A stretch of DNA of 64,000 bases from Lachnospiraceae bacterium. Lineage in GTDB: Bacteria > Bacillota > Clostridia > Lachnospirales > Lachnospiraceae. Of this stretch, positions 27,573 to 44,404 are shown piece after piece. The translations under genes and the position numbers were made by a program. The notes beneath the pieces were generated by a model, which was not told the DNA's origin, did not search any database, and worked only from the letters and a program-made list of their open reading frames with translations. Position 1 is the first letter of the stretch; each line of letters starts with the position of its first letter. Where the stretch lies: assembly GCA_022793375.1 (NCBI GenBank), contig JAAWCS010000040.1:1157-65156 (forward strand). The letters run 5' to 3'.

Positions 27573-27579
27573 TTTTTTG

Positions 27580-27616
27580 GGGCTGCTGCAAAACATAGCG
27601 TTTTATTTGCGGCAGC
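27580..27616 (+). repeat. Short (core-only) copy of the GCTGCTGCAAAAC...GTTTT..GCGGCAGC hairpin repeat
   Basis: ggggctgctgcaaaacatagcgttttatttgcggcagc shares both ends with the copy at 35234-35320. It starts 8 nt after the EIIC stop. Confidence 0.6.
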
Positions 27617-27642
27617 TTCTGTTTAGAGACAAGGAGACCATT

Positions 27643-30065
27643 ATGAAGAAATTTTTTGTCGTACCGCATTCTCATCTGGATCGGGAGTGGTATCGGACAT
27701 TCCAGGAAAACCGGATTAAGCTGGTGCGTTTTATGGACGATCTGCTGGATACGATGGATGCGGATGAGGAATATACGTGTTACAATCTGGATGCGCAGAC
27801 CAGTTTTATCGACGATTATTTTGCGATTAAGCCGGAAAACGAGGAGCGCTTCCGGCGCCATATCCGGGCAGGGCGGCTGCCGATCGGCCCCTGGTATGTG
27901 CAGCCGGACGAGCATTTGCCGACAGCCGAGGGGATAATCCGCAATCTGTTAATCAGCAAAAGGATTTCCGACGGGTATGCGGATTACAACCGTGTGGGGT
28001 ATGTGCCGGATTCGTTCGGGCAGTCGGCGGTTTTTCCGACGTTGATGAAGGGCTTTGGCATCGACAGCGCGATTTTGTACCGTGGATTTGGCGAGGAGGA
28101 TTCGCGCTACAACGATTTTATATGGGAAGGGCTGGACGGCAGCCGCCTGATTGCAAACTGGATGCCGATTGGGTACGGGAACGCGATGTTTTTCTGCGAG
28201 GATTTAGAGAAAAATCTGCGGGTGGTGGAGGAGAATCTCACACTGCTAAAGGAGCGGAGCATCAGCGGGAATTATCTGCTGATGTGCGGTTCCGACCAGA
28301 GTTTTATCAAAAAATTTTTGCCGGCGGCTCTGCGGCAGTTAAATGACTATTATCAAAGCCGGGGACAGGAGTACGAATTCGTACTGGCGACACTGCAAGA
28401 TTATATAGACGCAATCCGCGGACATGCAAAACAGATGGAGGTCGTGCGCGGGGAACTGCGCAAGGGAAAGAGGAGCCGCACGCACAACAGCATCGGTGCG
28501 ACACGGCTGGATATCAAGCAGAAAAGCTTCATGAGCGGATCTGCTACGGCGAGGGGAAGGGGCGGCCGCTTTTGGTGTTTTCCGCCTGCCTTGCGCCGAG
28601 ACAGCAGATCATCGAGACGGACGTGTATGTAAAAGACAGGACGTTTGCCATATACGACGGGCGCGGAGAGGAGACCGAGTATGAAATCGTTTCGTGCGAG
28701 CGTTTTAACCTCAAGGATACGAAGGTTTCGTTTACGCCGATCCCCGATGACTGGTATCACAAGATGAGGATTCGTCTGCGGTGCGGCGCCTCCTGCTACG
28801 GCTATCAAACGCTGTACCTGCGCGAGGGCGTGCCGGCGGCAGAGAAGGAAGGATCGATGATACGGGGAGAGACGCTCGACAACGGCCGCGTCGCGGTGTG
28901 GGTGGAAGCGGACGGCTCTTTTACGATCGCGGACCGGGAAAGCGGCCGGGTGTTTCGGAATCAGCATATTCTGGAGGACGACGGAAATGCAGGGGACGAG
29001 TACGACTATTCTCCGTCCCTGAACGATTACGCGGTCACTTCGCTGGGCGCTCTGGAAAAACGGAGCGTATTGGAGGATACGCCGCTGCAGGCCAGCATGG
29101 AGTTTTGCTATCGTCTGCGTGTGCCGGAGACGACGACGCAAAAAGCGCGCGGCGAGACGCTTTGCAGCCTGGAAGTTGCGATCGTGGTAACGCTTCGCAA
29201 GGAAGAGAAAATGGTATACTTTACGACCCGCATTGACAACCGGGCAAAGAACCACCGGCTGCAGGTCCATTTTGACGGGGGAGAACGGCTGGCGATGCAT
29301 GTGGCGGATATTCAGCTGGGGGAGATTGAGCGGGAAAACGTGTTTGCGCTTACTAAGGAGAGCGAACGCAGCTGGCACGAGCGCTATTACCCGGTATTTG
29401 ACAACCATAAATACAGCGGCTTAAAGGACGAGGACGGAAGAGGGTTTGTCATTTACAACAAAGGGCTTGCGCAGTATGAGATACACCAGCGGGAGACGAC
29501 GCACCTGGCGCTGACGCTTTTAAGCTGTGTGGGCGCGATGGGGAATATTGATCTCAAGTACCGCTCGGGGCGGCGAAGCGGTTCGGCCGACCAGACGCCG
29601 GCTTCGCAGATGCAGGGGATATTTACCTGTGAATACGCGTTTATGCCGGTGGACGAGAATACGGATTATATCCAGGCGGCAGAGAGCTATGTCAATCCGA
29701 TCCGTGCCGTTTCGTTTCCAGAGTACGACTGCGGCGGAAGCCTGCCGGACAGCCTTATGCTGTTTCGTTCGACAGACGGTTTGCTGGTGAGCGCCTTTAA
29801 GGAAGCGGAGGATCAAAAAGGAGGAATCCTGCGTCTGCTTAATCCGTATCCGTATGCGAAGAAGGATGTCTCGGTGACGGTCAACCGGCATCTTTTTAAA
29901 ACAATAACCTGCACGGATTTGGCGGAGCGGCAGACGGGCTGCGGGGAGGTGAAGATCGGAAAGAAGAACAATCCGGACGGTTCGGCAAAGGCGGTCTTTA
30001 GCGGCGAAGTCGAGATTTCAAGGATCGGGCGCAACGCGCTTTTATCACTGCGGCTGGAGCAATAG
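27643..30065 (+). pseudogene. GH38 alpha-mannosidase (MngB/mannosylglycerate hydrolase-like), interrupted by a frameshift and probably an internal deletion near 28515-28575
   Basis: 'VVPHSHLDREWY', 'QPDEHL' and 'GYVPDSFGQS' are GH38 N-domain motifs in the 27643 frame. That frame turns into junk after 'RLDIKQK'. The GH38 C-terminal region ('LLVFSA...IIETDVYV...') continues in another frame (28572-30065). Confidence 0.7.
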
Positions 30066-31309: not shown

Positions 31310-32344
31310 ATGAAAGTAAAAGTCAAGGATATCGCAAAGGCGGCCGGCGTATCGACAACGGCCGTTTCGCTGGTTTTGAACGACAAGCCATGCCGGCTCT
31401 CGGAAGCGACAAAAGAACATATCCTGCAGGTGGCCCGCGAACTGCATTATCAAAGCGCGGGCGCTTTTGGCCGCGGCGCCTGGGAACGGACACGGACGGT
31501 CGGCTTGGTGCTTGCGGAAGAGGAAAACGAGTTTTTTCAGACCTTTGCCGCCGAACTGAGCCGTTGTTTTTTTGCAAGGGACTATACGGTTTTGCAATGC
31601 AGCGTGGGCACGGATTTGGAGCGCTGCTGTCAGGCCATCAAAAGCCTGGCCGGCGCCAATGCGGCGGGGCTGATCGTGATCGCCCCCTGCTTCTGCGGCC
31701 GTGAGCCAAGGCTGATTAAGCTTCTCAAATCGCTGCAGGAAAACGGGATGCCGCTTGTGCTGGCCGACCGGGCGGTGTATTCCGTGTTCTGTGATTTTGT
31801 GACGGCCGATCACAAATACGGCGGGCGGCTGGCAACGGAACATCTGATTGCAAAAGGCCATACGCAGATCGGCTGTATCCTCTGCGGCCAGGAGGAATAT
31901 ACGTCGCGCCGGCGGCTGGAGGGCTACCGGCAGGCGCTGGCCGGCGCGGGACTGCCCTTTTTGGAGGAACGGGTCCGGCTGGGCGCTTTTGACGAGGAAA
32001 CCGGCTACGCCGGCGCGAAAGCGCTGGTCAAGCAGGGGGTCACGGCGATTTTTGCCGGAAACGACCAAATCGCGCTCGGCGTATACCGCTATGCGCAGGA
32101 GCACAACCTGCGGATTGGGCAGGATTTGTCCGTCGTCGGCTATGACGATACGGCCATAGCCCATTTTTTGCGGCCGCCGCTTACCAGCGTCCGGCAGGAT
32201 GTAGGGCGGATCGCGGAACAGGCCGCGGAGGCGCTTTTGCGCCAATGCGACGAGCTGGCCCCGGCGGCCAATGCGGAGAATTATTACTTTACCCCGGTTC
32301 TGGTGGAAAGAGAGTCGGTAGGCGAGCGGGGGGAGGGAGGATGA
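31310..32344 (+). CDS. LacI family transcriptional regulator
   Basis: N-terminal HTH 'VKDIAKAAGVSTTAVSLVLND' followed by a periplasmic-binding-fold sugar-sensor domain. 344 aa. Confidence 0.85.
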   Translation: MKVKVKDIAKAAGVSTTAVSLVLNDKPCRLSEATKEHILQVARELHYQSAGAFGRGAWERTRTVGLVLAEEENEFFQTFAAELSRCFFARDYTVLQCSVGTDLERCCQAIKSLAGANAAGLIVIAPCFCGREPRLIKLLKSLQENGMPLVLADRAVYSVFCDFVTADHKYGGRLATEHLIAKGHTQIGCILCGQEEYTSRRRLEGYRQALAGAGLPFLEERVRLGAFDEETGYAGAKALVKQGVTAIFAGNDQIALGVYRYAQEHNLRIGQDLSVVGYDDTAIAHFLRPPLTSVRQDVGRIAEQAAEALLRQCDELAPAANAENYYFTPVLVERESVGERGEGG

Positions 32345-32757
32345 AAATGTGGACATGTCCGAAGTGCGGGCGCACTTTTAAGAAGCGGGAACAGGACCAT
32401 TACTGCGGGAAAGCGCCGGAAACGATTGAGGGATACATTGCTATGCAGCCGGAGGGAATACGGCAGTATCTCAAAGAAGTAAGGGATGTGCTGCGTGCGG
32501 CGCTGCCGGAAGCGGAGGAACGAATCTCATGGAGTATGCCGACTTATTGGAAGGGGCATAATATTATCCATTTTGCCGGTTTTAAAAACCATGTGGGCCT
32601 GTATCCGGGACCGGAAGCTGTCCGGGAGTTTGCCGAACGTCTGAAAGAGTACAAGACCAGCAAGGGAACCATACAGCTTCCATACAGCAAGCCGCTTCCG
32701 GCGGAACTGATCTCCGATATTGCCAGGTGGTGTTATGGGACGGGGAACCACCCGTAA
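32341..32757 (+). CDS. DUF1801 (YdhG-like) domain protein with an N-terminal CxxC zinc-ribbon-like motif
   Basis: 'WTCPKCGRTF...HYC' followed by a 'ISWSMPTYW' type DUF1801 core. Its start overlaps the LacI stop. Confidence 0.6.
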   Translation: MKMWTCPKCGRTFKKREQDHYCGKAPETIEGYIAMQPEGIRQYLKEVRDVLRAALPEAEERISWSMPTYWKGHNIIHFAGFKNHVGLYPGPEAVREFAERLKEYKTSKGTIQLPYSKPLPAELISDIARWCYGTGNHP

Positions 32758-32911
32758 GGTTGGAAGGGTGCGGAGATTTGGAGATTCAACAATTTAGATA
32801 TGAGAACAAAGCAAGCCCATCTTGCCAGGAAAGGTCAATCTGCCTTGTGTGGATTGGCCCTTTTATATTGCATTGCCGAAAATGGTGCCGCGCAACTGTC
32901 TCAAAAAGCCG

Positions 32912-32965
32912 TTGCCAGAAAAACGAAAAGGTGATATAATTTATCAATGATAAATAAATTTATCA
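32912..32965 (+). promoter_or_regulatory. Promoter overlapped by an AT-rich operator of three alternating ATTTATCA / TGATAAAT half-sites
   Basis: TTGCCA (32912-32917), 17-nt spacer, TATAAT (32935-32940) with TGa. ATTTATCA-A-TGATAAAT-AA-ATTTATCA spans 32939-32965. Confidence 0.55.
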
Positions 32966-33075
32966 AAACTAAAAATCCCATGCCGCACGAGTCTTGCAGG
33001 CGGCCTGTCCCTGGCATCGTCTCCAGGCAGGCACAACACCGGCAGACGGGACAAAACAGGAGGAGGAAACGCAAT

Positions 33076-34029
33076 ATGACGGCAAAGAAGATTATTTTGG
33101 ACTGCGATCCGGGAATGGACGATTCCATGGCCATTATCATGGCCTGCAAATCGCCGGCTCTCAAGGTGATGGCCGTGACAACGGTCAACGGAAACTACCC
33201 CGCAGAGGTGACGAGCGTCAATGCCCGCAAGATATTGGAGCTTTTGGGCCGTGAGGACATCCCGGCTGCGCAGGGGATGGCAGCGCCGATGGTACGGCCC
33301 GCGCCGCGGGATCCTTTTACCCATGGGGCGGACGGCCAGGCGGAGAATTTCCTGCCCGCGCCTTCGCTGCCGCTTTGCGGGCGGCATGCGGTGGATCTGA
33401 TGATCGATTTGATAAACGAAAATCCCGGCGAGATTCATCTGGTTATGACAGGACCGATGACCAATCTTGCTGTGGCACTGCAAAAAGCGCCGGAGATTCG
33501 CGAAAAGATCGCGGGCATTACCGCCATTTCAGGCGCCTTCGGACTCAATCGTTATGCTTTTGCCAATGCCACGGGAGATACGCCGCAAAGCGAGTGGAAT
33601 GTCTATGTCGATCCCGAGGCGGCGCAGATCGTCTACCAAAGCGGTATCCCGATGACGGCGCTGGGGCTTGACGTGGCTACGCATTTTGACATCAACCTCA
33701 GCGGAGAGCAAATCCGGGCGCTGGAGGAGAGCACAAACCGGGAAGCCGCATTTCTGCGCCAGGCGATCCGTTTTGTAAACCAGAAAGGATTTGAAGCGTA
33801 CTGCGCGGTGATCGACTGCCTGGCGGTCGGGTATGTCATTGACCCGACTCTGGTTGAGACATTTGCAGGGCGTGTGGGGATAGAGACAAAAGGAGAATTA
33901 ACCCTGGGAAATACCGTACTGGATGCCAGGCATCACCATGTATGGGAACAGCTCCCGGTTGTTGAAATCGGCAGGAGCGTCGATTACGCGCGTTTTTTGC
34001 GCCTTTTATTGGAACTGGTTCTGGCATAA
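33076..34029 (+). CDS. Nucleoside hydrolase (IUNH family)
   Basis: 'ILDCDPGMDDSMAI' is the DxDxxxDD calcium/ribose-binding fingerprint. AGGAGG lies 9 nt before the ATG at 33076. Confidence 0.85.
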   Translation: MTAKKIILDCDPGMDDSMAIIMACKSPALKVMAVTTVNGNYPAEVTSVNARKILELLGREDIPAAQGMAAPMVRPAPRDPFTHGADGQAENFLPAPSLPLCGRHAVDLMIDLINENPGEIHLVMTGPMTNLAVALQKAPEIREKIAGITAISGAFGLNRYAFANATGDTPQSEWNVYVDPEAAQIVYQSGIPMTALGLDVATHFDINLSGEQIRALEESTNREAAFLRQAIRFVNQKGFEAYCAVIDCLAVGYVIDPTLVETFAGRVGIETKGELTLGNTVLDARHHHVWEQLPVVEIGRSVDYARFLRLLLELVLA

Positions 34030-34041
34030 GGAGGAGAGCAT

Positions 34042-35202
34042 ATGTTTGAAAACGAAAAGATTTATATCGCGGGGCCGGAGTGCTTTTACGCAAACGGGCC
34101 GCAGCTTTTGAAAGCCATGCGCTGCCGCGCCGAGAGCCTTGGCTTTGGGGTAACGCTGCCAAACGACCACCCCCTGGACATGGAAAATGCGCTGCTTCAA
34201 AAGCGGGCCGACAGCATTTTTGCGGATTTGGAAAAAGTAATGAACGATTCGACGGCGATTGTGGCCGATCTGGAGTCTTTCCGGGGCTCAGAACCGGACA
34301 GCGGGACCGTCTATGAACTTGGCATGGCCTATGCCCGGGGAATCCGCTGTTACGGCTACACCCGTGATAAACGGCCGCTGGCCTGCAAGGACCAGCAGTA
34401 CCGGCTGAAAGACGGAGTGGTGTATGACGAACACGGCAGGCCGGCGGCTTACAAAGAACTGCCCTTTTGCGTATGCGTCGTCGGCTCGACAAAAATCGTT
34501 GAAGGCGGGTTTGACGACTGTTTGAAAGCGCTGATGACGGACCTGGAAGAAGAGTATAAACGAAAGGGACGTACCGATCAGGCGCCGGAGACGGCCGAAA
34601 TCGTTTTGGAGACGGCGTTTTCGGATTCGGCGCCGGAGAGCGGGGACGCGGCATACCGGCAAGCCGCTTCGGGGGCGTTTTCTCACAGGCGGCCGATTGC
34701 CTATTTGTCGGGGCCGGAGCGGTATGAAGAGGGCGCGGACGCCCTTTACAAAAAAATGAAAGAGATTTGCCGGGAGCACGGGATCGAGGCGCGGACGCCG
34801 CTTGACGAAACAGAGGATAGGGCGGCGCTAAAAGAGGGGAATCCCTACACGCAGGCGGCACGTCTGTTTGAACGCTGGCAGAAGCAGGTCCGGGACTGCG
34901 ATCTGGTAATTGCAAATCTGAACGATTACCGGGGTTATGAGTGCAGCAACGATACGGGGTTTGAATGCGGCATGGCGCATCAGCTGGGAAAAGCCCTGTA
35001 CGGATACATGGACGATGCGGGCCCCATGAAGGAGCGCGTCCCGCATCTGGGCGAAGAAAATGATTTTCGGGATCCGGCCGGGTGCAATGTGGAAAATTTT
35101 GACTATCCGCTGAATTTGATGTTTGGCTGCTCGATGAAGATTTTTGAAGGGCGCTTTGAAGAGGCAGTGAAGCGGGTGGCAGAGGAGCTGGGCCTGCGCT
35201 AA
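34042..35202 (+). CDS. Tandem-domain nucleoside 2-deoxyribosyltransferase-like protein (two NDT/PF05014-like modules in one polypeptide)
   Basis: Module 1 has 'KIYIAGPECF' and 'PDSGTVYELGMAYARG'. Module 2 has 'IAYLSGPERY', 'NDTGFECGMAHQLG' and 'YPLNLMFG'. Both keep the Glu of the DxGTxxExG catalytic motif. Confidence 0.7.
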   Translation: MFENEKIYIAGPECFYANGPQLLKAMRCRAESLGFGVTLPNDHPLDMENALLQKRADSIFADLEKVMNDSTAIVADLESFRGSEPDSGTVYELGMAYARGIRCYGYTRDKRPLACKDQQYRLKDGVVYDEHGRPAAYKELPFCVCVVGSTKIVEGGFDDCLKALMTDLEEEYKRKGRTDQAPETAEIVLETAFSDSAPESGDAAYRQAASGAFSHRRPIAYLSGPERYEEGADALYKKMKEICREHGIEARTPLDETEDRAALKEGNPYTQAARLFERWQKQVRDCDLVIANLNDYRGYECSNDTGFECGMAHQLGKALYGYMDDAGPMKERVPHLGEENDFRDPAGCNVENFDYPLNLMFGCSMKIFEGRFEEAVKRVAEELGLR

Positions 35203-35233
35203 GAGGTGCGCCGGCGGCGGTTTGCTTGGGCGG

Positions 35234-35320
35234 GGGCTGCTGCAAAACAAGGATTCTATACAATATATGGTAAACCGGCACGGCCATATTTTATGTTTTA
35301 TCTGAGTTTTGCGGCAGCCC
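35234..35320 (+). repeat. Copy 2 of the ~90-nt hairpin repeat element
   Basis: gggctgctgcaaaacaaggattctatacaatatatgg...gccatattttatgttttatctgagttttgcggcagccc. It aligns with 13375-13465 apart from a 9-nt indel and a few substitutions. It starts 32 nt after the NDT stop. Confidence 0.8.
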
Positions 35321-35728
35321 TTAAACCGCACACTCTGCCATGTCCCAGCCGGTTTAGTATTCTTTTTCTTTATAAATCCGTACCGTAAGAGGATACGACA
35401 AAACAAACGTTTTGCGGTCCTGTATCGCTTCTAAAATATTCTCTATGCCATTTCTTTCTATAAAACAAGGCCCGTCATTTCGTTAATTTCTCAAAAAAAG
35501 AAAAGCTGATACATCGGTAATAAAATAGGCAAGCTTATACTAAGATAAAACTTGTCCAGATATGCAAAAAGGACAGCGATTTCACATATTGGCATATCTG
35601 CGGATTGAATTTGCCTATTATAAAATTAGAATAAGTAATATCGCTGAAGAGAGAGGGGAAATGGCAGAAAAAACCGGAATAATGACGAATTATGGTATTG
35701 ACAAGCGCATGGAAATGTGCTATTTTTA

Positions 35729-35756
35729 TTACAAGAACTTGTTATAAAAGTATAAT
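35729..35756 (+). promoter_or_regulatory. Candidate promoter of the sugar ABC operon
   Basis: TTACAA (35729-35734), 16-nt spacer, TATAAT (35751-35756). It lies about 90 nt upstream of the first permease gene. Confidence 0.5.
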
Positions 35757-35845
35757 AAGTTAAAAGATACCAGCGACAGACAGCGGGGGCAGGCAGAGGT
35801 ATCCCAGGGGTATGAGTTTATCCACCAACAGGAAGGAGAAGGAGC

Positions 35846-36739
35846 ATGAAGCAAGTGTCCAGGGGGGCCAGGCGGAAACGAAGTTTTTTTAAACGGATCG
35901 AACCGTTTCTGTATCTGAGCCCGGCCGCCATATTTTTTGCCGTCTTTATTTTTTACCCGTTCATCAAAACCATATTCAACAGTTTTTTCCTTGTCAACAG
36001 CAAAGGAGAGGTGCGCTACTTCGTAGGCCTGGAGAATTATCTCCATGTGCTTTCGGACCCGTCCTTTATCCAGTCGATCAAAAACACTCTGGTTTATGTG
36101 GCGATGGCCTCGCCGTTAGCGATTGTGATCGCGCTGGTGCTGGCGATGCTGTGCTGCAATAAGACCAAGACCTCGTCCGCCTATGAGACCATGTTTGCGG
36201 TAACGATGGCCATGTCGCTTTCCGTGACGGCGATGATCTTCAATCTGATGTACAACCCGACGATCGGCGTGCTCAATCACCTGCTGCAAAAGCAGATTCG
36301 ATGGCTGGGCGATCCCAAGATCGCCATGGTGGCCCTGAGCATCATTTCGGTCTGGATGAATATCGGCTATAACTTCCTGTTTTTGCTGGCTGCGGTACGG
36401 GGCGTGCCAAAAGATGTCCTGGAGAGCGCGGAGGTGGACGGGGCCGGGATCCTGCGCCGCTCGGTGAGCGTTGTGCTGCCGCTGATCTCGCCTACCGTGT
36501 TTTTCCTGATCTGCAATTCGCTGGCCAAAAATATGATGATGTCGGGCCTGGTGCTCATTTTGACCGAGGGCGGGCCCCGCGGCTCGACCCAGACGATGAT
36601 ATCCTATATGTTTCAGCAGACGATCAACAATCAGAACTACAACGACGGCTACGCGGCGGCGATCATTGCCTTTATCTTTACCTTTATCGCCCTGTGCCTG
36701 AGTTTTGCCTTTGAAAAGAAGGGGGTACACTATCAATGA
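35846..36739 (+). CDS. Carbohydrate ABC transporter permease (MalF/UgpA-like)
   Basis: 297 aa with six TM segments and a typical 'LYLSPAAIFF' N-terminal region. It is coupled to the next permease gene. Confidence 0.85.
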   Translation: MKQVSRGARRKRSFFKRIEPFLYLSPAAIFFAVFIFYPFIKTIFNSFFLVNSKGEVRYFVGLENYLHVLSDPSFIQSIKNTLVYVAMASPLAIVIALVLAMLCCNKTKTSSAYETMFAVTMAMSLSVTAMIFNLMYNPTIGVLNHLLQKQIRWLGDPKIAMVALSIISVWMNIGYNFLFLLAAVRGVPKDVLESAEVDGAGILRRSVSVVLPLISPTVFFLICNSLAKNMMMSGLVLILTEGGPRGSTQTMISYMFQQTINNQNYNDGYAAAIIAFIFTFIALCLSFAFEKKGVHYQ

Positions 36740-37557
36740 AAAAGAAAGTGTGGGGAATCCTCTATCAGGTATTGTGTCTCGGGCTTGGCCTGCTTGTAAT
36801 ATCGCCGATTTTGTACGCGGTAAGCGTATCCTTCATGGATCCCGATCAGATTTTGAATACGGAGCTGTCGCTCTTGCCGCGCCGCCTTCACTTTGACAAT
36901 TACAAAATCGCGCTGAATTCAACGCCGCTGCTTCGCTATATGCTCAACTCCCTGATTATCGCAGGCGTGTCGAGCCTGGTGCGGCTGGTGACGGCCAGTA
37001 CGGCGGCTTTCGCCTTTTCCTTTCTGCATTTCAAAGGAAAAAACGTGATCTTTATCCTCTTTATGGCGACGATTATGGTGCCGGCGGACTGCCTGATGGT
37101 GACCAATTATCAGACCGTGTCGCAGCTGGGATTGATTAACACCTATCTCGGCATGATGATTGTTTTCTGCGCGTCGGCCCTCAACATCCTGGTAATGCGC
37201 CAGAACTTTCTGTCCTTTTCCACCGAGCTCTACGACGCGGCCGCGGTGGACGGATGCGGCAACTTCCGTTTCTTTACAAGAATCCTGCTGCCGCTGAATA
37301 AGCCGGTCCTGACTACGGTATTTATTTCCGCCTTTATCGGTACGTGGAACACGTATCTCTGGCCGATGCTGGTGACCAATAAAAATGAAATGCGCACCGT
37401 ACAGGTAGGCATCACGATGCTCAACTTCCCGGACGGCACGGTCTACGGACCGATTATGGCGGCGGCGACGATTGTGCTGATCCCGACGATCACGGTCTTT
37501 ATCCTCTTTAAAAAGCAGATCGTGAGCGGGATGATGGTTGGATCTGTAAAAGGGTAA
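36736..37557 (+). CDS. Carbohydrate ABC transporter permease (MalG/UgpE-like)
   Basis: 273 aa. 'ELYDAAAVDGCGNFRFFTRILLPL' is the EAA loop. Confidence 0.85.
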   Translation: MKKKVWGILYQVLCLGLGLLVISPILYAVSVSFMDPDQILNTELSLLPRRLHFDNYKIALNSTPLLRYMLNSLIIAGVSSLVRLVTASTAAFAFSFLHFKGKNVIFILFMATIMVPADCLMVTNYQTVSQLGLINTYLGMMIVFCASALNILVMRQNFLSFSTELYDAAAVDGCGNFRFFTRILLPLNKPVLTTVFISAFIGTWNTYLWPMLVTNKNEMRTVQVGITMLNFPDGTVYGPIMAAATIVLIPTITVFILFKKQIVSGMMVGSVKG

Positions 37558-37633
37558 ACCTGTTCACAGATAGAATAACGCGGTGTCCCATTATGCCCTG
37601 AAAACACGGGCATGAATAACGAAAGGAGAAGAG

Positions 37634-39076
37634 ATGCAAAAGGTAAAAAGAACGCTTCGTAAGTTACTCGCGGCTGTGTTGACAGCGGCCCTGTTATCCG
37701 GTCTTACAGCCTGTTCGTCCTCCGGGGACGGCCAGACGGAGGCCGGCGCTTCCCAGGGGGAGACGCAAAACGTGTCCGATCAACAGGGGACGCAGTCCCC
37801 GGCCCCCGAAGGGACCGTCGTCGTGGAATACTGGCACACGATGACCGGCGCCAATGAGACGGCTCTCAATGCCGTTGTACAGAAATTCAACGATACGGTC
37901 GGCAAGGAAAAGGGGATTTGGGTCGAGTGCATCTTCCAGGGCGACGATATCAACGAAAAGCTGAAAACCCTGTACCAGGCCAAAGACACCGAGAACTTCC
38001 CGGACTGCGCGATGATTTCCAATGCCGGTATCCCCTCGATCATGGACTATGAGCAGGTGGCGCCGGCGGCCGATCTCTATGCGGCCGGCGGTGAAGTGCT
38101 GGTAGCGCAGGAGGACCTGGTAGCCAATCCGGCCCGGGCCGCTACCTATCAGGAAAAAATGATTGCCATGCCTTTTAACGGTTCCGCGATCCTTCTGTAT
38201 TATAATAAGGATATGTTCCGCGAAGCGGGCCTGAATCCGGACAACCCGCCAACGACGATTGCCGAAATGGCGGAATGCATCACGGCGCTGATGCAGACGG
38301 ACGACAGCGGCAGCGTAACCCGCTATGGCCTGAATGTGGCGGTGCGCCGCTATCAGATGGCCAACTGGATCGGCGGGCAGGGAGAGTACAATTTCTTCGG
38401 TGACAACGAAGGCGGCCGCGCCGGTATGATGACCCGCGTGACCTTTGGCGACGACGGGACGCTGATGAACTTCTTGACGGAATGGGAAAAAGTCGTGCAG
38501 ACCGGCGGCTACAAAGAAGTAGAGGACAACATCAACGAAGAATTTGCGATGCAGCTGTTCGGCATGGCGGTCATGTCCTCGGCGCGCATCGGCAAAATCA
38601 CCGATCTGGTAGGCGACAGCTTTGAGTGGGGCACGGCGTTCCTGCCGAAAGTAAACGCCGGCGACCAGGGCGGCGTGGCCGTAGGCGGCTCCAGCAATCT
38701 GGTCTTTGACCGTGGCGACGCGGCCGTAGTAGACGCGGCCTGGTACTTTGTGCAATATCTGGCAAGCCCCCAGGCGCAGTACGATTTCTGCACACAGACC
38801 GGCTATATCCCGATCAATCGTCTGACCTTTGAACTCGACGAAATGAAAACCTTCCTTGCCGAAAACGAAAAATTTGCCGTGGCCTGCGAGGAAATGAAGG
38901 CCAGTAACCCCAACGTACAGGAACCTTTCGATATTATCAACTGGGAGCTTGACTCCATCATCCGCGACAACATGGAGCTGTTTGGAGCCGGCGAGCAGGA
39001 TATTCAAACCACGCATGACAATATTGTCAACGGCTGCAACGACAAGCTGGCGGCCTATGTAAAAGCCAACCAGTAA
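37634..39076 (+). CDS. ABC transporter extracellular solute-binding lipoprotein (family 1, carbohydrate)
   Basis: Signal peptide with lipobox 'LTAC'. 480 aa. It follows the two permease genes. Confidence 0.8.
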   Translation: MQKVKRTLRKLLAAVLTAALLSGLTACSSSGDGQTEAGASQGETQNVSDQQGTQSPAPEGTVVVEYWHTMTGANETALNAVVQKFNDTVGKEKGIWVECIFQGDDINEKLKTLYQAKDTENFPDCAMISNAGIPSIMDYEQVAPAADLYAAGGEVLVAQEDLVANPARAATYQEKMIAMPFNGSAILLYYNKDMFREAGLNPDNPPTTIAEMAECITALMQTDDSGSVTRYGLNVAVRRYQMANWIGGQGEYNFFGDNEGGRAGMMTRVTFGDDGTLMNFLTEWEKVVQTGGYKEVEDNINEEFAMQLFGMAVMSSARIGKITDLVGDSFEWGTAFLPKVNAGDQGGVAVGGSSNLVFDRGDAAVVDAAWYFVQYLASPQAQYDFCTQTGYIPINRLTFELDEMKTFLAENEKFAVACEEMKASNPNVQEPFDIINWELDSIIRDNMELFGAGEQDIQTTHDNIVNGCNDKLAAYVKANQ

Positions 39077-39093
39077 CAGAGGAAACCATAGAA

Positions 39094-39891
39094 ATGGTAA
39101 AACTTGTAGTAAGCGATATGGACGGCACGCTGCTTGGCCCGGGATCCTTCCTGGGCCAGGAAGCCCTCTCGATAGTCGAACATCTAAAGCAGCGGGGAAT
39201 CGGCTTTACGATCGCCACCGGCCGCAGCCGCAGCCTGAGCGAAGGCTACGAAGCGCTGCTGGGACTGGAACTGCCTTACATCAGCTGCAACGGAGCGATG
39301 ATCCTGAGGCGTGGGCAAGTCATAAAAAGGTATTCGATCCCTCTTTGCGGCCTGCGGGCGCTGATTGAAGAAGCCGACCGGCAGGAGATGTCGATCGTAT
39401 TCAGCATCGACGGAGAAGAATTTTACCTGCGGGAAACGCCCTGGATCCTCGAAAAGAGGGAGAGCGAGGGCTTTTACCAAAACCGGATGGATCTGTCGGA
39501 AACGGTTTGGGAAACGCTGTGCCTGGAAAAGATCATGATCATGGACGGCGACGCCTCCGGCCGGATCGGCCAGATCGAGGCTAAGTGCCGCGCGCTTCCG
39601 GCGCAGTACGGCTTTACCCGCTACAACGACCGCTCGGTGGAAATCGTACACCGTGAGGCCACCAAAGCCAACGGAATCCGCTTCCTCTCGCAGTACCTGG
39701 GGATTCCCATGAAAGAAATCCTTGCAATCGGCGATCATCAAAACGACTGCGAAATGCTGCGGGCCGCCGGCATCGGGGTAGCGGTCGCCAACGCAATCCC
39801 CGCCGCACAGGAAAACGCCGACTACGTAACCAGCGGCGATCACCTGGCCGGGGTACTGGAGGCGGTACATACATTTTGCTTAAAGGAATAA
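39094..39891 (+). CDS. Cof-type HAD-IIB family hydrolase (sugar phosphatase-like)
   Basis: 'LVVSDMDGTLL' is motif I and 'GDHQNDCEML' is motif IV. Confidence 0.8.
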   Translation: MVKLVVSDMDGTLLGPGSFLGQEALSIVEHLKQRGIGFTIATGRSRSLSEGYEALLGLELPYISCNGAMILRRGQVIKRYSIPLCGLRALIEEADRQEMSIVFSIDGEEFYLRETPWILEKRESEGFYQNRMDLSETVWETLCLEKIMIMDGDASGRIGQIEAKCRALPAQYGFTRYNDRSVEIVHREATKANGIRFLSQYLGIPMKEILAIGDHQNDCEMLRAAGIGVAVANAIPAAQENADYVTSGDHLAGVLEAVHTFCLKE

Positions 39892-39938
39892 ACGCGGCTT
39901 AAAAACCAGGCTCTGCCTGAAAAATAGGGAGAAAAACC

Positions 39939-40805
39939 ATGAGATTATCCACCTCGACCTGCATGTATTTTAACCGGCCCGGCGGACTAAAAGCGCCGAT
40001 CCCCGAATCCATCCGTCTTTTGTCGGAAGCCGGGTATCGCGTACTGGACATGAATTTCCACGACTGCGCGGTCTTTGAGACCCCTTTTACCGGCGAGCGA
40101 TGGGAATACTGGCTGGAGGAAGTCCTGGCGATGAAAGAGCGGTGCGGCGTCGTATTCTCCCAGGGTCATTCTCACTTTTATAATTACTGTGACGAAACGC
40201 TGGCAAAACGGCCGTATCTGGAAGAACTGATACGGCGGGGGATCGTGGCGGCCGGCCGCCTGGGGATTGACTGGCTGGTCATCCATGCGGCCACCGATTT
40301 TGACAGCGCTAGACCCTTTGAATCCTCGCGCCGAAAAGCGCTCGAATACTTCAAACCGCTTCTGGAGCTGGCCGCAGCCCATCATGTGGGGATCGCCATC
40401 GAAAATCTGTGGGATTTAAACATCGCGCCCCGGCATCGCTACACGGCGACGGCCGAAGAACTGGCCGATTTGATCGACCGCCTGCCCTACGACAACGTAG
40501 GCGCCTGCTGGGATGTGGAACATGCAAGTATCATGGAGCAGAACCAGACGGCGTGCCTTAAACTGCTGGGAAAGCGGGTCAAAGCCACCCATATCTCGGA
40601 TCACAACGGAAAAGAGAACGACCATCTACTTCCCTTTATGGGGGTCATGGACTGGCAGGAGGTGATGCAGGCTTTGCGCGGCATCGGCTATGCGGGGGAT
40701 TTTACCTTTGAAACACACCGCTTTACGCAGGAAATCCCCGACGCTCTGATCCCGGCGGCCCTGCGCTACAGCCGCCAGGTGGGAGAGTACGTACTGACCT
40801 TGTAA
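39939..40805 (+). CDS. Sugar phosphate isomerase/epimerase (xylose isomerase-like TIM barrel)
   Basis: 288 aa with 'IAIENL' and 'ATHISD' type metal-ligand blocks. It is FrlC/IolE-like in size. Confidence 0.7.
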   Translation: MRLSTSTCMYFNRPGGLKAPIPESIRLLSEAGYRVLDMNFHDCAVFETPFTGERWEYWLEEVLAMKERCGVVFSQGHSHFYNYCDETLAKRPYLEELIRRGIVAAGRLGIDWLVIHAATDFDSARPFESSRRKALEYFKPLLELAAAHHVGIAIENLWDLNIAPRHRYTATAEELADLIDRLPYDNVGACWDVEHASIMEQNQTACLKLLGKRVKATHISDHNGKENDHLLPFMGVMDWQEVMQALRGIGYAGDFTFETHRFTQEIPDALIPAALRYSRQVGEYVLTL

Positions 40806-40891
40806 ACCAAAACCATATATCATCCCGGCGGCGGCCCGTAAGCGCCCGCAAAAAAGGGCAGGCGGCCGCCGGCTAAACGAGGAGGAATCAG

Positions 40892-42031
40892 ATGAACACA
40901 ACATACGACTGTGCCATGCGGCGCCAGGTAATGAGCCTGCCGCAGCTGCTGGACGAACAGTACGCCGACTTAGAACCAAAGGTCCGCAATGTGCTGTCTT
41001 TCCAGGAAATCCATTCCTGCCAGCGGATCATCCTGACCGGATGCGGCGACTCATGGGCGGCCGCCATGGCAATGAAGCCGGCCTTTGAAGGGCTGACCGG
41101 CCTGAAAACAGAAGCCATTCCCGCCCTGGAACTAAGCCGGTATACGCCGGAGAAGCTTCTGAAGGGAAGCGCTTACAGCCCTCTGGTGATCGTAGTCAGC
41201 AATTCCGGCGGCGCGGCCCGGCTGGCGGAAGCCGTTCTGCGCTGCAACAAGTACGGGGCCTTTACGCTGGCAGTCACCGGCAAACCGGAATCGCCGCTGG
41301 GAATCCATGCCAAACGGATTCTGCCCATGGAAATCCCCCGTTTTGAAAGCGCGCCCGGGACACGCTCCTACATGGTCGCCCTGCTCGCGCTTTTGCTGCT
41401 GGCGATCCGTATAGGGGAGGTGCGCGCCCGCTATACGATGGAGGAGGCCTCCGCCCGCCGGCGTGAACTAAAGGGGCTCGGCCAGAAGCTGGCGCAGGGC
41501 CTGCCGCAGATGGACGCGGCCGTGATGCAGATCGCTCTGGATTGGAGCGGATTGGCGGCGTTTGACTATGTAGGCGCGGGCGCCGACTATGCCACCGCCT
41601 GGTACGGCCACGCCAAAATGCTGGAAGCCACCGGCCGCCATGCGATGCACATCAATTCCGAGGAATGGTTCCACCTGAACTGTTTCATCAAAGAACCGGA
41701 TCAAATAGGGACCGTCGTCGCGGCCCATACGGCCAACGCAGGCCTTAGCCGGACGCGGGAAATGCTGGCGGCCGCGGCCCGGATGGGCCGGCGGCTGATG
41801 GTGGTCACGGACGGTACGGCCGGGGACCTTGGGATCGATGCGGCCTGCGTCCAGGTGCCAAAGACCGATTCCCCCTACGCGGCCCCTCTGATGATGTTCG
41901 TCCCCCTGTGCCTTCTGGCGGCCGACCTGATGGCGATCTGGGAGGAAAAGCAGTGCCGCGGCCAGGAGGGCCCCTGGGAATTCTGCAAAGGTGCGGCCGG
42001 GCTTAAAAACAGCGAAATAATTGTCGTGTAA
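40892..42031 (+). CDS. SIS domain protein (GlmS C-terminal / FrlB / AgaS-like sugar-phosphate amino- or keto-isomerase/deglycase)
   Basis: 'RIILTGCGDSWAAAMA' and 'VIVVSNSGGAA' are SIS motifs. The size is consistent with two SIS repeats. Confidence 0.7.
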   Translation: MNTTYDCAMRRQVMSLPQLLDEQYADLEPKVRNVLSFQEIHSCQRIILTGCGDSWAAAMAMKPAFEGLTGLKTEAIPALELSRYTPEKLLKGSAYSPLVIVVSNSGGAARLAEAVLRCNKYGAFTLAVTGKPESPLGIHAKRILPMEIPRFESAPGTRSYMVALLALLLLAIRIGEVRARYTMEEASARRRELKGLGQKLAQGLPQMDAAVMQIALDWSGLAAFDYVGAGADYATAWYGHAKMLEATGRHAMHINSEEWFHLNCFIKEPDQIGTVVAAHTANAGLSRTREMLAAAARMGRRLMVVTDGTAGDLGIDAACVQVPKTDSPYAAPLMMFVPLCLLAADLMAIWEEKQCRGQEGPWEFCKGAAGLKNSEIIVV

Positions 42032-42049
42032 CAACACAAGGAGTAGAGC

Positions 42050-42454
42050 ATGCTGAAAAAATATGAATTGCAGACCGGATACAACGAAGTGGTCAATATC
42101 ACCGACCAGGTAAAAGAAGCCGTGCAGGAGAGCGGGGTAAAAAGCGGGCTCTGTCTGGTATTCAACCCCCATACGACGGCCTCGATGACGGTCACCTCAT
42201 TTTGGGATCCGATGGGCTTTGAGGACCTTCAGGACGAAATCTGCCGCCTGATTCCGACCAAAGTAGACTTTAAGCATCAGCACGACACGCCGCAGGATGC
42301 GGCCGGGCACGTAAAATCCTCGCTGATGGGGATCGAACTGTGCCTGATTGTCGAAGAAGGGAAACTGCTGCTGGGCGGCTCCCAGGGGATTTTCTTTTTG
42401 GAATTTGACGGGCCGCGCCAAAGAAAATATTATGTCAAAGTGATCGAAGGCTGA
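42050..42454 (+). CDS. YjbQ/UPF0047 family protein (annotated in databases as secondary thiamine-phosphate synthase enzyme)
   Basis: 'NPHTTASMTV' and 'HDTPQDAAGHVKSSLMG' are the family hallmarks. Confidence 0.8.
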   Translation: MLKKYELQTGYNEVVNITDQVKEAVQESGVKSGLCLVFNPHTTASMTVTSFWDPMGFEDLQDEICRLIPTKVDFKHQHDTPQDAAGHVKSSLMGIELCLIVEEGKLLLGGSQGIFFLEFDGPRQRKYYVKVIEG

Positions 42455-42459
42455 AAAAG

Positions 42460-42491
42460 GACCCGTCATCCAGGCAATGCGATGACGGGTC
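42460..42491. terminator. Hairpin terminator shared by the convergent yjbQ-like and GntR genes
   Basis: gacccgtcatc (42460-42470) pairs perfectly with gatgacgggtc (42481-42491). An A-run on the plus strand gives a U-run for the minus-strand transcript. Confidence 0.6.
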
Positions 42492-43277
42492 TCAGATATT
42501 CGGCTGGAAATTGCGGAAAACGCCGTTGATATTTTTTAAAGACAGCTTAAAGCGGACGGATTTGCCGATCCAGAAGGTGTGCGACAGCTCAAGGGGCGTC
42601 GAATCCGCCAGGACGGACAGCCCCCTTACTAACATCAGCGGCGAATCCGGGGAAATATTCAGAAGATGGGTATCTTCCAGTGTGGGCCGCGTGACCTCGA
42701 TCGTGTCCTCCACCTCGCTGGCAACCAGGTTGTAATCTCCGGCCAGGGTAGCGGAAAGCTTGTTGTAGGGGATGTCAATGTATTCAATGCCGGGCACAAA
42801 GCGGGCCGGGATCCAGGATTTGCCCAGCGCGAGAATGCGGTCCGCCGAACAGTAGAGCCGCGAAAAATAAAAGACGGGCGAACCCGCCGGCAGCTGGAGC
42901 GGGGCGCAGATTTCGGGGGAAGCCTCCGGGATCACGCACTGTTCCACCTTGCGCGCCGAGATATTGTAAGACTGAAGGCTTCCGGCATTAAAACGCTCGC
43001 TGGAAACCAGGTTATAACTCAGGTTGTGGACAAACGGAGCCTTCATCTCATTGACGACGGCCGGCTTTCCCTGCTGCTGGGTGATGAACCCGTCGCGTTC
43101 CAGTTCTTTTAAGGCCTGGCGCACGGTAATCCGGCTCACCTCATATTCGGCGCTTAACCCCCCGGTGGCCGGGATCGTCTCGCCGACGCCCCACTCATGG
43201 CCGGAAATCCGCTGCTTCAAATCATTATACACCTGATAATAAGCAGGAATAGGGGATTCTTTATCGATCGAGTGCAT
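42492..43277 (-). CDS. GntR family transcriptional regulator (HutC/FarR subfamily with a UTRA effector domain)
   Basis: 'IPATGGLSAEYEVSRITVRQALKELERDGFI' is a winged HTH. 261 aa. Confidence 0.85.
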   Translation of the reverse strand: MHSIDKESPIPAYYQVYNDLKQRISGHEWGVGETIPATGGLSAEYEVSRITVRQALKELERDGFITQQQGKPAVVNEMKAPFVHNLSYNLVSSERFNAGSLQSYNISARKVEQCVIPEASPEICAPLQLPAGSPVFYFSRLYCSADRILALGKSWIPARFVPGIEYIDIPYNKLSATLAGDYNLVASEVEDTIEVTRPTLEDTHLLNISPDSPLMLVRGLSVLADSTPLELSHTFWIGKSVRFKLSLKNINGVFRNFQPNI

Positions 43278-43313
43278 ACAATCACCTTTCCAAAAATTCT
43301 TTTGACCTTAGTG

Positions 43314-43326
43314 TCTTATTATAAGA
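43314..43326. promoter_or_regulatory. Perfect 6-1-6 palindrome TCTTAT-T-ATAAGA in the GntR/ARH divergent region (candidate operator)
   Basis: Seen directly in the sequence. It lies just downstream of a TTGACC hexamer (43302-43307). Confidence 0.3.
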
Positions 43327-43366
43327 GAAAAACAAAGAAAAGTCAACGAATAACAGGAGGATCAAC

Positions 43367-44404
43367 ATGAACATCACAATCGAAAAACGCGTATCAGGCT
43401 CCCTCTACGGAATGGCAACCGGCGACGCCTTAGGCGTCCCCTCGTCGACGTATGCCCAGCAGGCAGTCAAAGAACGGTGGGGATGGATCGATACGTTCCT
43501 GCCCCCCGATCCCGGCCACATTTTTCACGACGGTCTCAAAGCCGGCGAGTACACGGACGATACGGAACAGGCCCTGGCCCTGATTCACTCTTTTTTGCGC
43601 CATAAACGCGTGGTGCCGCGCGACGTAGTCGAAGAAATCATCAAGTGGGCCGACCGCGTCAAAGGGAAATATGCAAGCCCCTTAGGCCCCAGCACCGAAC
43701 GTGCGCTCAAAGCGATCCGCGCCGGCGCCGATCTGACACAGTCCGGCCGCCAGGGCAATACCAACGGTTCCGCCATGCGCATCAGCCCGGTGGGAATCCT
43801 TCACGGGATTCGGCGCTCCTCCTGCGAAGAGCTGGTAAAAGACGTATATCTGACCTGCCTGCCGACGCACAATACCGATGTCTGCGTTTCTTCGGCGGCC
43901 GCAATCGCCTGGGGGATTGCCGTCTGCTTAGGCGGCGAAACCGACCTTGAGCGCATTGTGGAAGAAACCGTGCGCGCCGCCGAACTGGGGAGACAGTACG
44001 GCTGCAAAATCTGCGCCCCTTCGGTCGCCAAACGCATCCGCCATGCCTGCGGCCTGGTCAAAGAAGCCGGCAGTCCGCAGGAGGCCATGGAGAACCTCTA
44101 CGATATCTACGCCGGCATGGATTTGGCGGCCGACTCGATTCCGGTGGCGATCGCCCTGTTTGTGCTCGGAAAAGGCGACGTAAAGAAAGTCAACGAATAC
44201 TGCGTCAATTTTGGCGGCGACTGCGACACGAACGCGGCGATGGCCGGCGCGATGGCCGGCGCCTACTCCGGCATCGACAGCGTGCCGGCTGAGTGGGTTC
44301 GGACGATCAACGAAGTCAACCACATCGACCTCATGGAGTACGTGCCGCAGCTGATTGGCCTGGCCGGCGAGTGGACGGTCGGCGGCGGGGATGAGGCGGT
44401 TTAA
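43367..44404 (+). CDS. ADP-ribosylglycohydrolase (ARH/DraG) family protein
   Basis: 'GSLYGMATGDALGVP' and 'EYTDDTEQALAL' are N-terminal metal-binding motifs. 'GGDCDTNAAMAGAMAGAY' is the C-terminal motif. Confidence 0.85.
   Translation: MNITIEKRVSGSLYGMATGDALGVPSSTYAQQAVKERWGWIDTFLPPDPGHIFHDGLKAGEYTDDTEQALALIHSFLRHKRVVPRDVVEEIIKWADRVKGKYASPLGPSTERALKAIRAGADLTQSGRQGNTNGSAMRISPVGILHGIRRSSCEELVKDVYLTCLPTHNTDVCVSSAAAIAWGIAVCLGGETDLERIVEETVRAAELGRQYGCKICAPSVAKRIRHACGLVKEAGSPQEAMENLYDIYAGMDLAADSIPVAIALFVLGKGDVKKVNEYCVNFGGDCDTNAAMAGAMAGAYSGIDSVPAEWVRTINEVNHIDLMEYVPQLIGLAGEWTVGGGDEAV

Follow-up and report, generated by a model that had tools for sequence, protein, structure and literature searches.

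The nucleoside 2-deoxyribosyltransferases (NDTs) are important biocatalysts for nucleoside drugs; the NDT domain family and its chemistry are well known, as is the IUNH type of nucleoside hydrolase that accompanies them here. To our knowledge, all NDTs characterised so far are symmetric homo-oligomers. The protein described here is a single chain with two unlike copies of the NDT domain. It is encoded on the plus strand, at positions 34042 to 35202, of a 64,000-nucleotide stretch of DNA from a Lachnospiraceae bacterium of the mouse gut (GenBank assembly GCA_022793375.1, contig JAAWCS010000040.1, positions 1,157 to 65,156; hereafter the window), directly behind an IUNH-family gene. On the reading that we regard as probable, this chain would be an asymmetric pseudo-dimer of NDT fold, with one composite active site (site 1), one auxiliary site (site 2) and a role as catabolic partner of the IUNH hydrolase.

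The best sequence and structure matches of both halves of the tandem protein are the trypanosomatid PDTs, namely LmPDT of L. mexicana (6qai) and the NDT of T. brucei (2a0k). These enzymes are homodimers of ~155-aa subunits, and each active site is built from two protomers. In LmPDT, Tyr7/8, Asn56, Asp79 and the catalytic Glu85 are provided in cis, while the adjacent subunit provides Glu121#, the proton donor to purine N7, and Asn128#, a deoxyribose ligand (bioRxiv 10.1101/2024.11.29.626018). The tandem protein shares with the trypanosomatid enzymes the strand Y-I-A-G-P-x-x-F, the loop E-P-D-x-G-T-x-x-E-x-G (in its N-half) and the loop V-E-N-F-x-x-P-x-N-L-M (in its C-half), and it would share the two-protomer logic of the site. 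It differs in that each trypanosomatid subunit holds both the cis and the trans residues, giving two identical sites, whereas the tandem protein has two diverged domains on one chain with one residue set each. More distant are CtNDT (8pqr, 8rh3 and others) and the Lactobacillus type I and II NDTs, which share the fold, the Tyr-Glu dyad and the double-displacement chemistry, but are single-domain homo-tetramers or hexamers of weak similarity (E 0.02-0.1 with the N-half). The Asp62 of CtNDT aligns with Asp62 of the N-half, and the CtNDT site is likewise completed by partner-subunit residues.

The gene and the parts of its product are as follows.

34042..35202, plus strand: tandem NDT gene, an uninterrupted open reading frame (ORF) of 386 aa plus stop.
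34042..34572, plus strand: N-domain, residues 1-177, with the cis set Tyr8, Asp62, Asp86 and Glu92 and without the trans Glu and Asn.
34573..34692, plus strand: linker, residues 178-217, rich in Ala, acidic residues and Ser, predicted to be disordered.
34693..35199, plus strand: C-domain, residues 218-386, with Tyr221 and Glu308, Ser302 in place of the sugar-binding Asp, and Arg227 and Asp304.
34315..34317, plus strand: codon of Glu92, predicted nucleophile of site 1, which aligns with the nucleophile Glu of 2a0k, 6qai and CtNDT.
34963..34965, plus strand: codon of Glu308, nucleophile-equivalent of site 2, present in 120/120 homologs and Leu in the clusters P0126 and P0135.
35092..35115, plus strand: trans loop V-E351-N-F-D-Y-P-L-N358, which matches VENFGLPFN of LmPDT and is predicted to complete site 1.

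Independent assemblies of ENA, NCBI (GCA_949739945.1) and Logan yield nine contigs on which an identical 386-aa protein is called, and contigs of three mouse-gut metagenomes show zero differences over 32830-36200. No stop or frameshift splits the ORF in any of them, and a frameshift or assembly artefact is ruled out by this identity of independent assemblies and read-derived contigs.

Scanned one at a time against PF05014 (Nuc_deoxyrib_tr; curated cut-off 28.8 bits), both halves match, the N-half over residues 7-134 with 74.9 bits (E 7.3e-21) and the C-half over residues 221-360 with 86.0 bits (E 2.7e-24). Between them the identity is 27% (E 9e-14), and the C-domain is overall the half nearer to single-domain NDTs. 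An AlphaFold2 model from a 120-sequence alignment has a mean pLDDT of 89.9 and a pTM of 0.91, with disorder confined to the linker (pLDDT <50 at residues 184-209). Its top matches in a Foldseek search of the PDB are 2a0k and 6qai (target TM-score 0.82-0.84, probability 1.00), followed by Chroococcidiopsis NDT entries, human DNPH1 and Lactobacillus PDT. A reading made earlier from the sequence alone had proposed two NDT modules on one polypeptide, and this is borne out: neither the profile of the family nor the Foldseek search of the model assigns a half to an unrelated Rossmann-like fold. The same sequence-only reading had described an acidic/Ala-rich linker of about 50 aa. The linker has ~40 aa (9 Ala, 7 acidic, 5 Ser), and its length is not a trait of the family: among 120 homologs it ranges over 17-59 aa with a median of 19, the long version being lineage-specific.

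The residues of LmPDT were mapped on both halves by phmmer, profile and MAFFT alignments and counted in the 120 homologs, with the following result.

LmPDT Tyr7/8: Tyr8 in the N-half (120/120); Tyr221 in the C-half (119/120).
LmPDT Asn56: Asp62 in the N-half (D106/N14), which aligns with CtNDT Asp62; position 278 in the C-half (N95 R10 H9).
LmPDT Asp79: Asp86 in the N-half (120/120); position 302 in the C-half (S61 N26 C18 A14, no Asp).
LmPDT Glu85, the nucleophile: Glu92 in the N-half (120/120); Glu308 in the C-half (120/120).
LmPDT Glu121#: position 136 in the N-half (Pro108); Glu351 in the C-half (120/120).
LmPDT Asn128#: position 143 in the N-half (S89 A26 C3); Asn358 in the C-half (120/120).

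By these alignments, the halves are complementary rather than equivalent: the N-half keeps the cis residues and the C-half the trans residues. Both have a Tyr-Glu pair (Y8/E92 and Y221/E308) that aligns with the catalytic Tyr and Glu of 2a0k, 6qai, CtNDT and DNPH1. The sugar-binding Asp six residues before the nucleophile is present in the N-half (D86) and absent from the C-half (S302), and the partner-donated residues of the Glu121#/Asn128# type occur in the C-half only; by these residues, one of the two possible sites fits the published description. At the two N-half trans positions, the window protein itself has Ala136 and Cys143, where most homologs have Pro and Ser. The C-half motif VENFxYPxNLM matches VENFGLPFNLM of LmPDT. 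Profile alignments to 2a0k and 6qai give the same division, that of the N-half being confined to residues 5-123 and ending short of the partner loop, and that of the C-half running through it (VENF..P.NLM). Single-domain bacterial relatives of 160-200 aa (P0173, P0182, P0183, P0194, P0212, P0248) have both motifs, which is to be expected of symmetric homodimers. With the cis and trans catalytic residues split between the halves, only one site would be canonical, a stronger asymmetry than the earlier reading had noted, and, given an NDT-like N:C arrangement, that site would be complete, made from the cis residues of the N-half and the trans residues of the C-half. The chain should therefore act as a pseudo-dimer with one complete site of trypanosomatid type and one remodelled site. 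Site 1 reads YDDEEN or YNDEEN in 213 of the 216 window-type members among 219 sequences surveyed.

Whether the domains pair within the chain bears directly on this. The high pTM of two domains on a disordered linker means that their relative placement is predicted with confidence, and covariation points the same way. In 214 window-type tandem sequences (effective number of sequences, Neff, ~113), pairs with both residues in predefined active-site segments form 5.5% of 18,340 inter-domain pairs; they take seven of the top 10 places (hypergeometric p 1.6e-7) and 23 of the top 50 (p 2.5e-16). At the head of the list, A135-C301, C145-W279 and E130-R297 join the trans loop of the N-half with the catalytic loop and helix of the C-half, and S87-C301 and S79-R297 tie both catalytic loops together. 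This is the pattern expected of N:C contact. Chains could instead associate N:N' and C:C', with two kinds of symmetric sites and no composite ones; Asp62 is the cis general acid in enzymes of the CtNDT/LlNDT type, and an N:N' site might thus work without Glu121#. Such pairing does not predict the same covariation, the confident N:C placement in a single chain speaks against it and the exact complementarity of the kept residues would be hard to explain, so that we hold it to be very improbable. The built-in pseudo-dimer with two non-identical sites, which had been suggested from the sequence alone, thus agrees with the pTM, the residue distribution, the profile alignments and the covariation.

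In the asymmetric pseudo-dimer, the N-domain would give Tyr8, Asp62, Asp86 and the nucleophile Glu92 to site 1, and the C-domain Glu351 and Asn358. Glu92, oriented by Tyr8, would attack C1', the leaving base would be protonated by Glu351 of the C-domain and possibly also by Asp62, and the sugar hydroxyls would be held by Asp86 and Asn358. The covalent glycosyl-Glu92 intermediate would then be resolved either by a second base (transfer) or by water (hydrolysis). It has been found that NDTs hydrolyse nucleosides when the base is limiting (PMC12645435). The ligands for a free 5'-OH in site 1 indicate that its substrate would be a nucleoside and not a nucleotide.

Site 2 retains the Tyr221-Glu308 dyad and is without the sugar-binding Asp, both partner residues and a recognisable general acid. 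In alignments with the T. brucei, L. mexicana and human enzymes, its loop has Ser302 at the canonical Asp position and Asp304 at the canonical Gly position. The motif D-x-G-T-x-x-E, which the earlier reading had seen in both halves, is accordingly present in the N-half, whereas the C-half has S302-N303-D304-T-G-F-E308; nor is the 'GP' in the N-terminal strand of the C-half a conserved trait, residue 225 being P41 F28 L19 V17 in the family. Residue 302 is Glu or Asp in deeper-branching Christensenellaceae and Oscillospiraceae (~16 members) and Ser, Asn, Cys or Ala in Lachnospiraceae members. In P0126 and P0135, two distant representative clusters, position 308 is Leu and both Tyr221 and Arg227 are lost, while site 1 is intact; judged by these residues, they are natural 'site 2 knock-outs'. 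Outside them, Arg227, Asn303, Asp304, Phe307, Glu308 and Cys309 are almost invariant. Because site 2 varies by lineage and is sometimes dead while site 1 is constant, site 1 appears to be the constant centre and site 2 an auxiliary one, which may bind a second ligand or have weak catalytic activity of its own.

The C-domain might also be a pseudo-enzyme scaffold that donates Glu351 and Asn358 and holds the N-domain as in a dimer, site 2 being ligand-free and inactive. The equivalents of Asp79, Glu121# and Asn128# are lost from site 2 in all Lachnospiraceae members, the site decays stepwise over the lineages (E/D302 to S/N/C/A302 to Leu308), and a second tandem family (P0159, P0167, P0174) has a clearly dead half in which the nucleophile is Asp or Thr. 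We nevertheless find this reading rather unlikely. An unselected site should drift, as it has in the second family, but Glu308, Asp304, Arg227, Phe307 and Cys309 are invariant or nearly so down to ~44% identity, and the near-invariant residues of site 2 are therefore an argument against a site free of selection.

In another alternative both sites are catalytic on different substrates, site 1 on nucleosides and site 2 on a substrate that is 5'-substituted or has a cationic leaving group, and the protein would be a bifunctional N-glycosidase. Candidates for site 2 would then be a (deoxy)nucleoside 5'-monophosphate, as in DNPH1/Rcl, or nicotinamide riboside or NMN, for which no general acid is needed. 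The 2'-deoxynucleoside 5'-phosphate N-hydrolase DNPH1/Rcl has the superfamily fold of the tandem protein and shares with site 2 the Ser-type residues in place of the 5'-OH-binding Asp and the partner Asn, as well as an Arg six residues past the Tyr; it differs as a symmetric homodimer with Gly100 where site 2 has Asp304 and with the general acid Asp80. Its Ser98 and the Ser128 of the adjacent subunit bind the 5'-phosphate, which the backbone NH of Gly100 also contacts, and Asp80 acts as general acid (PMC10483697). In one pairwise comparison by hhalign (probability 48%, E 1.8e-4), Y221, R227, S302 and E308 fall on DNPH1 Tyr24, Arg30, Ser98 and Glu104. The retention of Tyr221 (119/120) and Glu308 (120/120) would suit a catalytic site 2, Arg227, Asn303 and Asp304 are family-specific invariants, and the residues at both phosphate-Ser equivalents are small (S/N/C/A at 302; S89/A26 at 143). 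However, S302 aligns with Ser98 in a family that is variable there (S61 N26 C18 A14), the window protein has Cys143 rather than Ser at the partner position, the carboxylate of Asp304 at the Gly100 position disfavours a phosphate, and site 2 varies by lineage, its nucleophile being gone in P0126 and P0135. The hhalign probability is modest, and a search of the PDB at E<=10 with the C-half profile returned NDTs alone and no DNPH1. Membership of the C-half in DNPH1 was thus rejected on account of Asp304 at Gly100 and of position 278 (N95/R10/H9), which offers no counterpart of Asp80. A phosphate pocket at site 2 is one possibility among others, and the bifunctional enzyme as a whole seems unlikely to us.

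The upstream partner and the elements that control the pair are these.

33076..34029, plus strand: IUNH-family ribonucleoside hydrolase of 317 aa, PF01156 over its full length (E 2.5e-81), with DCDPGMDD at residues 9-16.
34030..34041, plus strand: spacer GGAGGAGAGCAT of 12 nt with the Shine-Dalgarno sequence of the NDT gene, read from the sequence.
32912..32940, plus strand: sigma-70-like promoter TTGCCA-17-TATAAT with an extended -10 TG (11/12 consensus matches).
32940..32954, no strand assigned: candidate operator, the perfect 15-bp palindrome TTTATCAaTGATAAA abutting the -10 element, read from the sequence.
32984..35280, plus strand: bicistronic IUNH-NDT transcript, seen as one adapter-flanked metatranscriptome contig of 2,349 nt (mouse gut), unbroken.
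31310..32344, plus strand: LacI-family regulator immediately upstream, with Pfam LacI and Peripla_BP domains, a candidate for control of the IUNH-NDT pair.

The ATG of the NDT gene at 34042 lies 13 nt past the TAA of the hydrolase gene, which ends at 34029, with GGAGGAG just before it; the coordinates and the PF01156 match agree with the spacing and the partner family noted earlier. The hydrolase is RihA-like and shares full-length PF01156 and the DXDXXXDD motif with the group I hydrolases IU-NH and RihA; its nearest solved structures are 1ezr (L. major IU-NH, 7e-50) and 3g5i (E. coli RihA). It differs in scoring under the NCBIfam equivalog cut-offs of RihA, RihC and UriH and in belonging to a subfamily almost always trailed by the tandem NDT.

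The RNA contig starts 44 nt downstream of the promoter and comprises the leader, the IUNH gene, the NDT gene and 78 nt past its stop, which supports co-transcription of the two genes as a bicistronic unit. RNA contigs are absent over 35313-35836 and a separate one begins at 35900 in the transporter genes, although assembled contigs cannot prove absence. Of the shared promoter and operator that had been proposed for the pair, the common transcript from a promoter ahead of the IUNH gene is supported by the promoter match and by the single RNA contig spanning both genes, whereas the palindrome core was found among 97 loci only in the same-species L006-L009. As a conserved operator it was rejected, being missing from all other sampled genomes. 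A search of Rfam at E<=5 for a known RNA or riboswitch in the 130-nt leader and in the 640-nt gap after the NDT gene gave nothing credible. The CAGGCA-rich leader repeat (33024-33040) varies in length, with 15 nt more in L006 and 19 nt more in the metatranscriptome contig. The 640-nt gap also differs among strains, ~68 nt at 35497-35564 being missing in L006 and L008; at 35272 within it, breaks or differing joins occur in several metagenome assemblies. At 32341-32349, the TGA of the LacI-family gene overlaps the ATG of a zinc-ribbon/DUF1801 gene (ATGA); in another assembly of the same species (L008 1602-3053), LacI and DUF1801 are called as one 483-aa fusion.

Full-length tandem homologs form >120 clusters with 55-79% identity. 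The few named ones belong to Hungatella, Enterocloster and Lachnospiraceae and bear only the label 'nucleoside 2-deoxyribosyltransferase'. An exhaustive search gave ~25 tandem representatives, down to 34% identity, and a scan of species-representative genomes placed the gene in at least 135 species. Carriers include Hungatella hathewayi DSM 13479, Blautia, Lacrimispora, Mediterraneibacter, Lactonifactor, Oscillospiraceae and Christensenellaceae, as well as metagenome-assembled genomes labelled Sphaerochaeta and Chloroflexi. An origin from split genes was considered and set aside, the sole N-half-only protein (P0146) stopping 45 nt from a contig end and being uninformative.

Gene context was counted in the best 80 loci. 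In 75 of them the gene immediately upstream, in the same orientation, is an IUNH gene with 63-76% identity to that of the window, and one of the five others ends at a contig edge. In the reverse test, the 80 closest metagenome relatives of the hydrolase were taken, and of the 68 with a downstream sequence of >=1.3 kb, 67 have a full tandem NDT gene after them. The pairing is thus close to obligate in both directions. The one remaining locus, L171 (OFFG01001279.1), has a partial match of 173 residues that may be a truncated or frameshifted copy. A LacI gene precedes the pair in 18/80 loci, and 0 to 10 kb from the tandem NDT gene a SIS gene is found in 61/80 genomes and a YjbQ gene in 63/80. In the window these belong to the following cluster.

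35846..44404, no strand assigned: conserved cluster with two ABC permeases, a UgpB-like binding protein, a Cof-type HAD protein, an AP_endonuc_2 epimerase-like protein, a GlmS/FrlB-like SIS protein, YjbQ, GntR (minus strand) and an ADP-ribosylglycohydrolase.

Three settings recur. In setting A, permeases, two ~700-aa proteins of the ADP-ribosylglycohydrolase family, a PfkB kinase and a uridine-phosphorylase-like gene stand with the GlmS/FrlB-like SIS gene, YjbQ, IUNH and NDT, followed by a DeoD-like phosphorylase or a ribokinase-like kinase. Setting B consists of GntR, HAD, an ABC transporter, AP_endonuc_2, SIS, YjbQ, IUNH and NDT, and the window is a rearranged form of it. Setting C is a DeoD-like phosphorylase, LacI, IUNH and NDT alone. 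The ADP-ribosylglycohydrolase has 345 aa in the window, while the two of ~700 aa elsewhere have an unannotated C-terminal half. The accompanying gene set (window 39094-44404; L024 1190-12037) recalls fructosamine (frl) operons plus N-glycosidases. Literature searches on the association of SIS, YjbQ and IUNH and on operons of ADP-ribosylglycohydrolase and kinase gave nothing relevant, and the function of E. coli yegTUV is still undescribed. A defence role was rejected, since the NDT, IUNH, ADP-ribosylglycohydrolase and YjbQ proteins have no match in PADLOC and the context is metabolic.

IUNH hydrolases require the ribose hydroxyls, and a partner that cleaves deoxynucleosides would therefore be complementary. 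Most likely, to judge from its predicted site and its partner, the tandem protein is an N-glycosidase/transferase that acts on 2'-deoxynucleosides via a covalent intermediate and complements the ribose-specific IUNH, and the two enzymes would free bases and sugars from ribo- and deoxynucleosides for catabolism or salvage. Repressor-controlled clusters with importers and with ribokinase-like and phosphorylase-like genes point to nucleoside catabolism or salvage as the setting. Instead of catabolism, the role could be, as in Lactobacillus, to salvage deoxynucleosides for DNA synthesis through base exchange: base exchange is the classical NDT reaction, site 1 is canonical and the IUNH could deliver free bases as acceptors. 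We think it quite unlikely in view of the LacI/GntR repressor-controlled clusters with sugar ABC importers and of the ribokinase-like and uridine-phosphorylase-like genes near the pair in other genomes. NrdR, which regulates ribonucleotide reductase, is moreover encoded in the window just downstream and points to normal de novo synthesis of deoxynucleotides.

An 'unusual' (deoxy)nucleoside or nucleotide had been proposed from the sequence as the substrate. This is pure conjecture, and the canonical site resembles that for an ordinary nucleoside with a free 5'-OH; given the neighbouring SIS, YjbQ and ADP-ribosylglycohydrolase genes, a less ordinary substrate is conceivable. A bolder version would have two working and chemically different N-glycosidase centres, site 2 (Tyr221, Arg227, Asp304, Glu308) being re-tooled for a 5'-modified or non-standard nucleoside or nucleotide; the pair, together with the SIS-YjbQ, ADP-ribosylglycohydrolase, kinase and phosphorylase genes, would then form an undescribed catabolic pathway for modified nucleosides in gut Clostridia. 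We regard this as distinctly doubtful.

Several points weigh against the asymmetric pseudo-dimer with an auxiliary site 2 and a catabolic role, which we still prefer. Its N:C packing geometry is predicted from the pTM, the covariation and the residue logic, and the covariation scores are inflated by common ancestry at the Neff given above, so that they are support, not proof. Tyr221, Arg227, Asp304 and Glu308 are nearly invariant over the 214 sequences, which exceeds the expectation for an auxiliary site. The SIS, YjbQ and ADP-ribosylglycohydrolase neighbours do not fit simple nucleoside catabolism. As to the sugar, an Asp at the 'gatekeeper' position (CtNDT D62, TbNDT N53) has been linked to 2'-deoxy selectivity, but the D62N variant of CtNDT brought no gain and the rule failed there; in the wider family, position 62 is Asp in two thirds and Asn in one third. 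A preference for 2'-deoxy sugars is for these two reasons only weakly suggested.

The second tandem-NDT family (P0159, P0167, P0174; loci L094-L097) has chains of 350-370 aa that are 31-34% identical to the window protein, with which it shares two PF05014-like halves and asymmetric retention of the site residues. It differs in that its N-half has lost the nucleophile (Asp or Thr there) and keeps the partner Asn (GNLM), while the cis motif is complete in its C-half, which carries Cys where the partner Asn would stand. It also has no IUNH neighbour, one member lying beside formate-tetrahydrofolate ligase and folate genes and another beside ABC exporters. Because this distant family has the reverse polarity, asymmetric fusion seems to be a recurring outcome in the NDT superfamily. 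A common origin of both families is not claimed, the half-versus-half scores being ambiguous.

Elsewhere in the window, the gene of a GH38 alpha-mannosidase is present as two overlapping ORFs (27577-28632 and 28572-30065) with a break at 28525/28526. In contig L006, from a sister strain, ~238 additional bases are present at this break and the gene is a single one of 794 aa; it seems to have been disrupted by a deletion in the window strain.

Full-text literature searches found no description of a fused, tandem or pseudo-dimeric NDT. What is new is a natural single-chain NDT in which, as the alignments have it, the cis and trans parts of the site are divided between two domains, and which is locked to an IUNH gene across gut Clostridia. 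The database label 'nucleoside 2-deoxyribosyltransferase' masks both the tandem architecture and its asymmetry. For the family, the tandem NDT would show a route from NDTs to asymmetric pseudo-dimers in which one site could be mutated without touching the other. For the bacteria, the IUNH-NDT pair, common in Hungatella, Enterocloster, Blautia, Mediterraneibacter and Lactonifactor, appears to be a conserved and unstudied module for handling nucleosides from the diet, the host or dead microbes, and it could bear on the microbial metabolism of nucleoside-analogue drugs.

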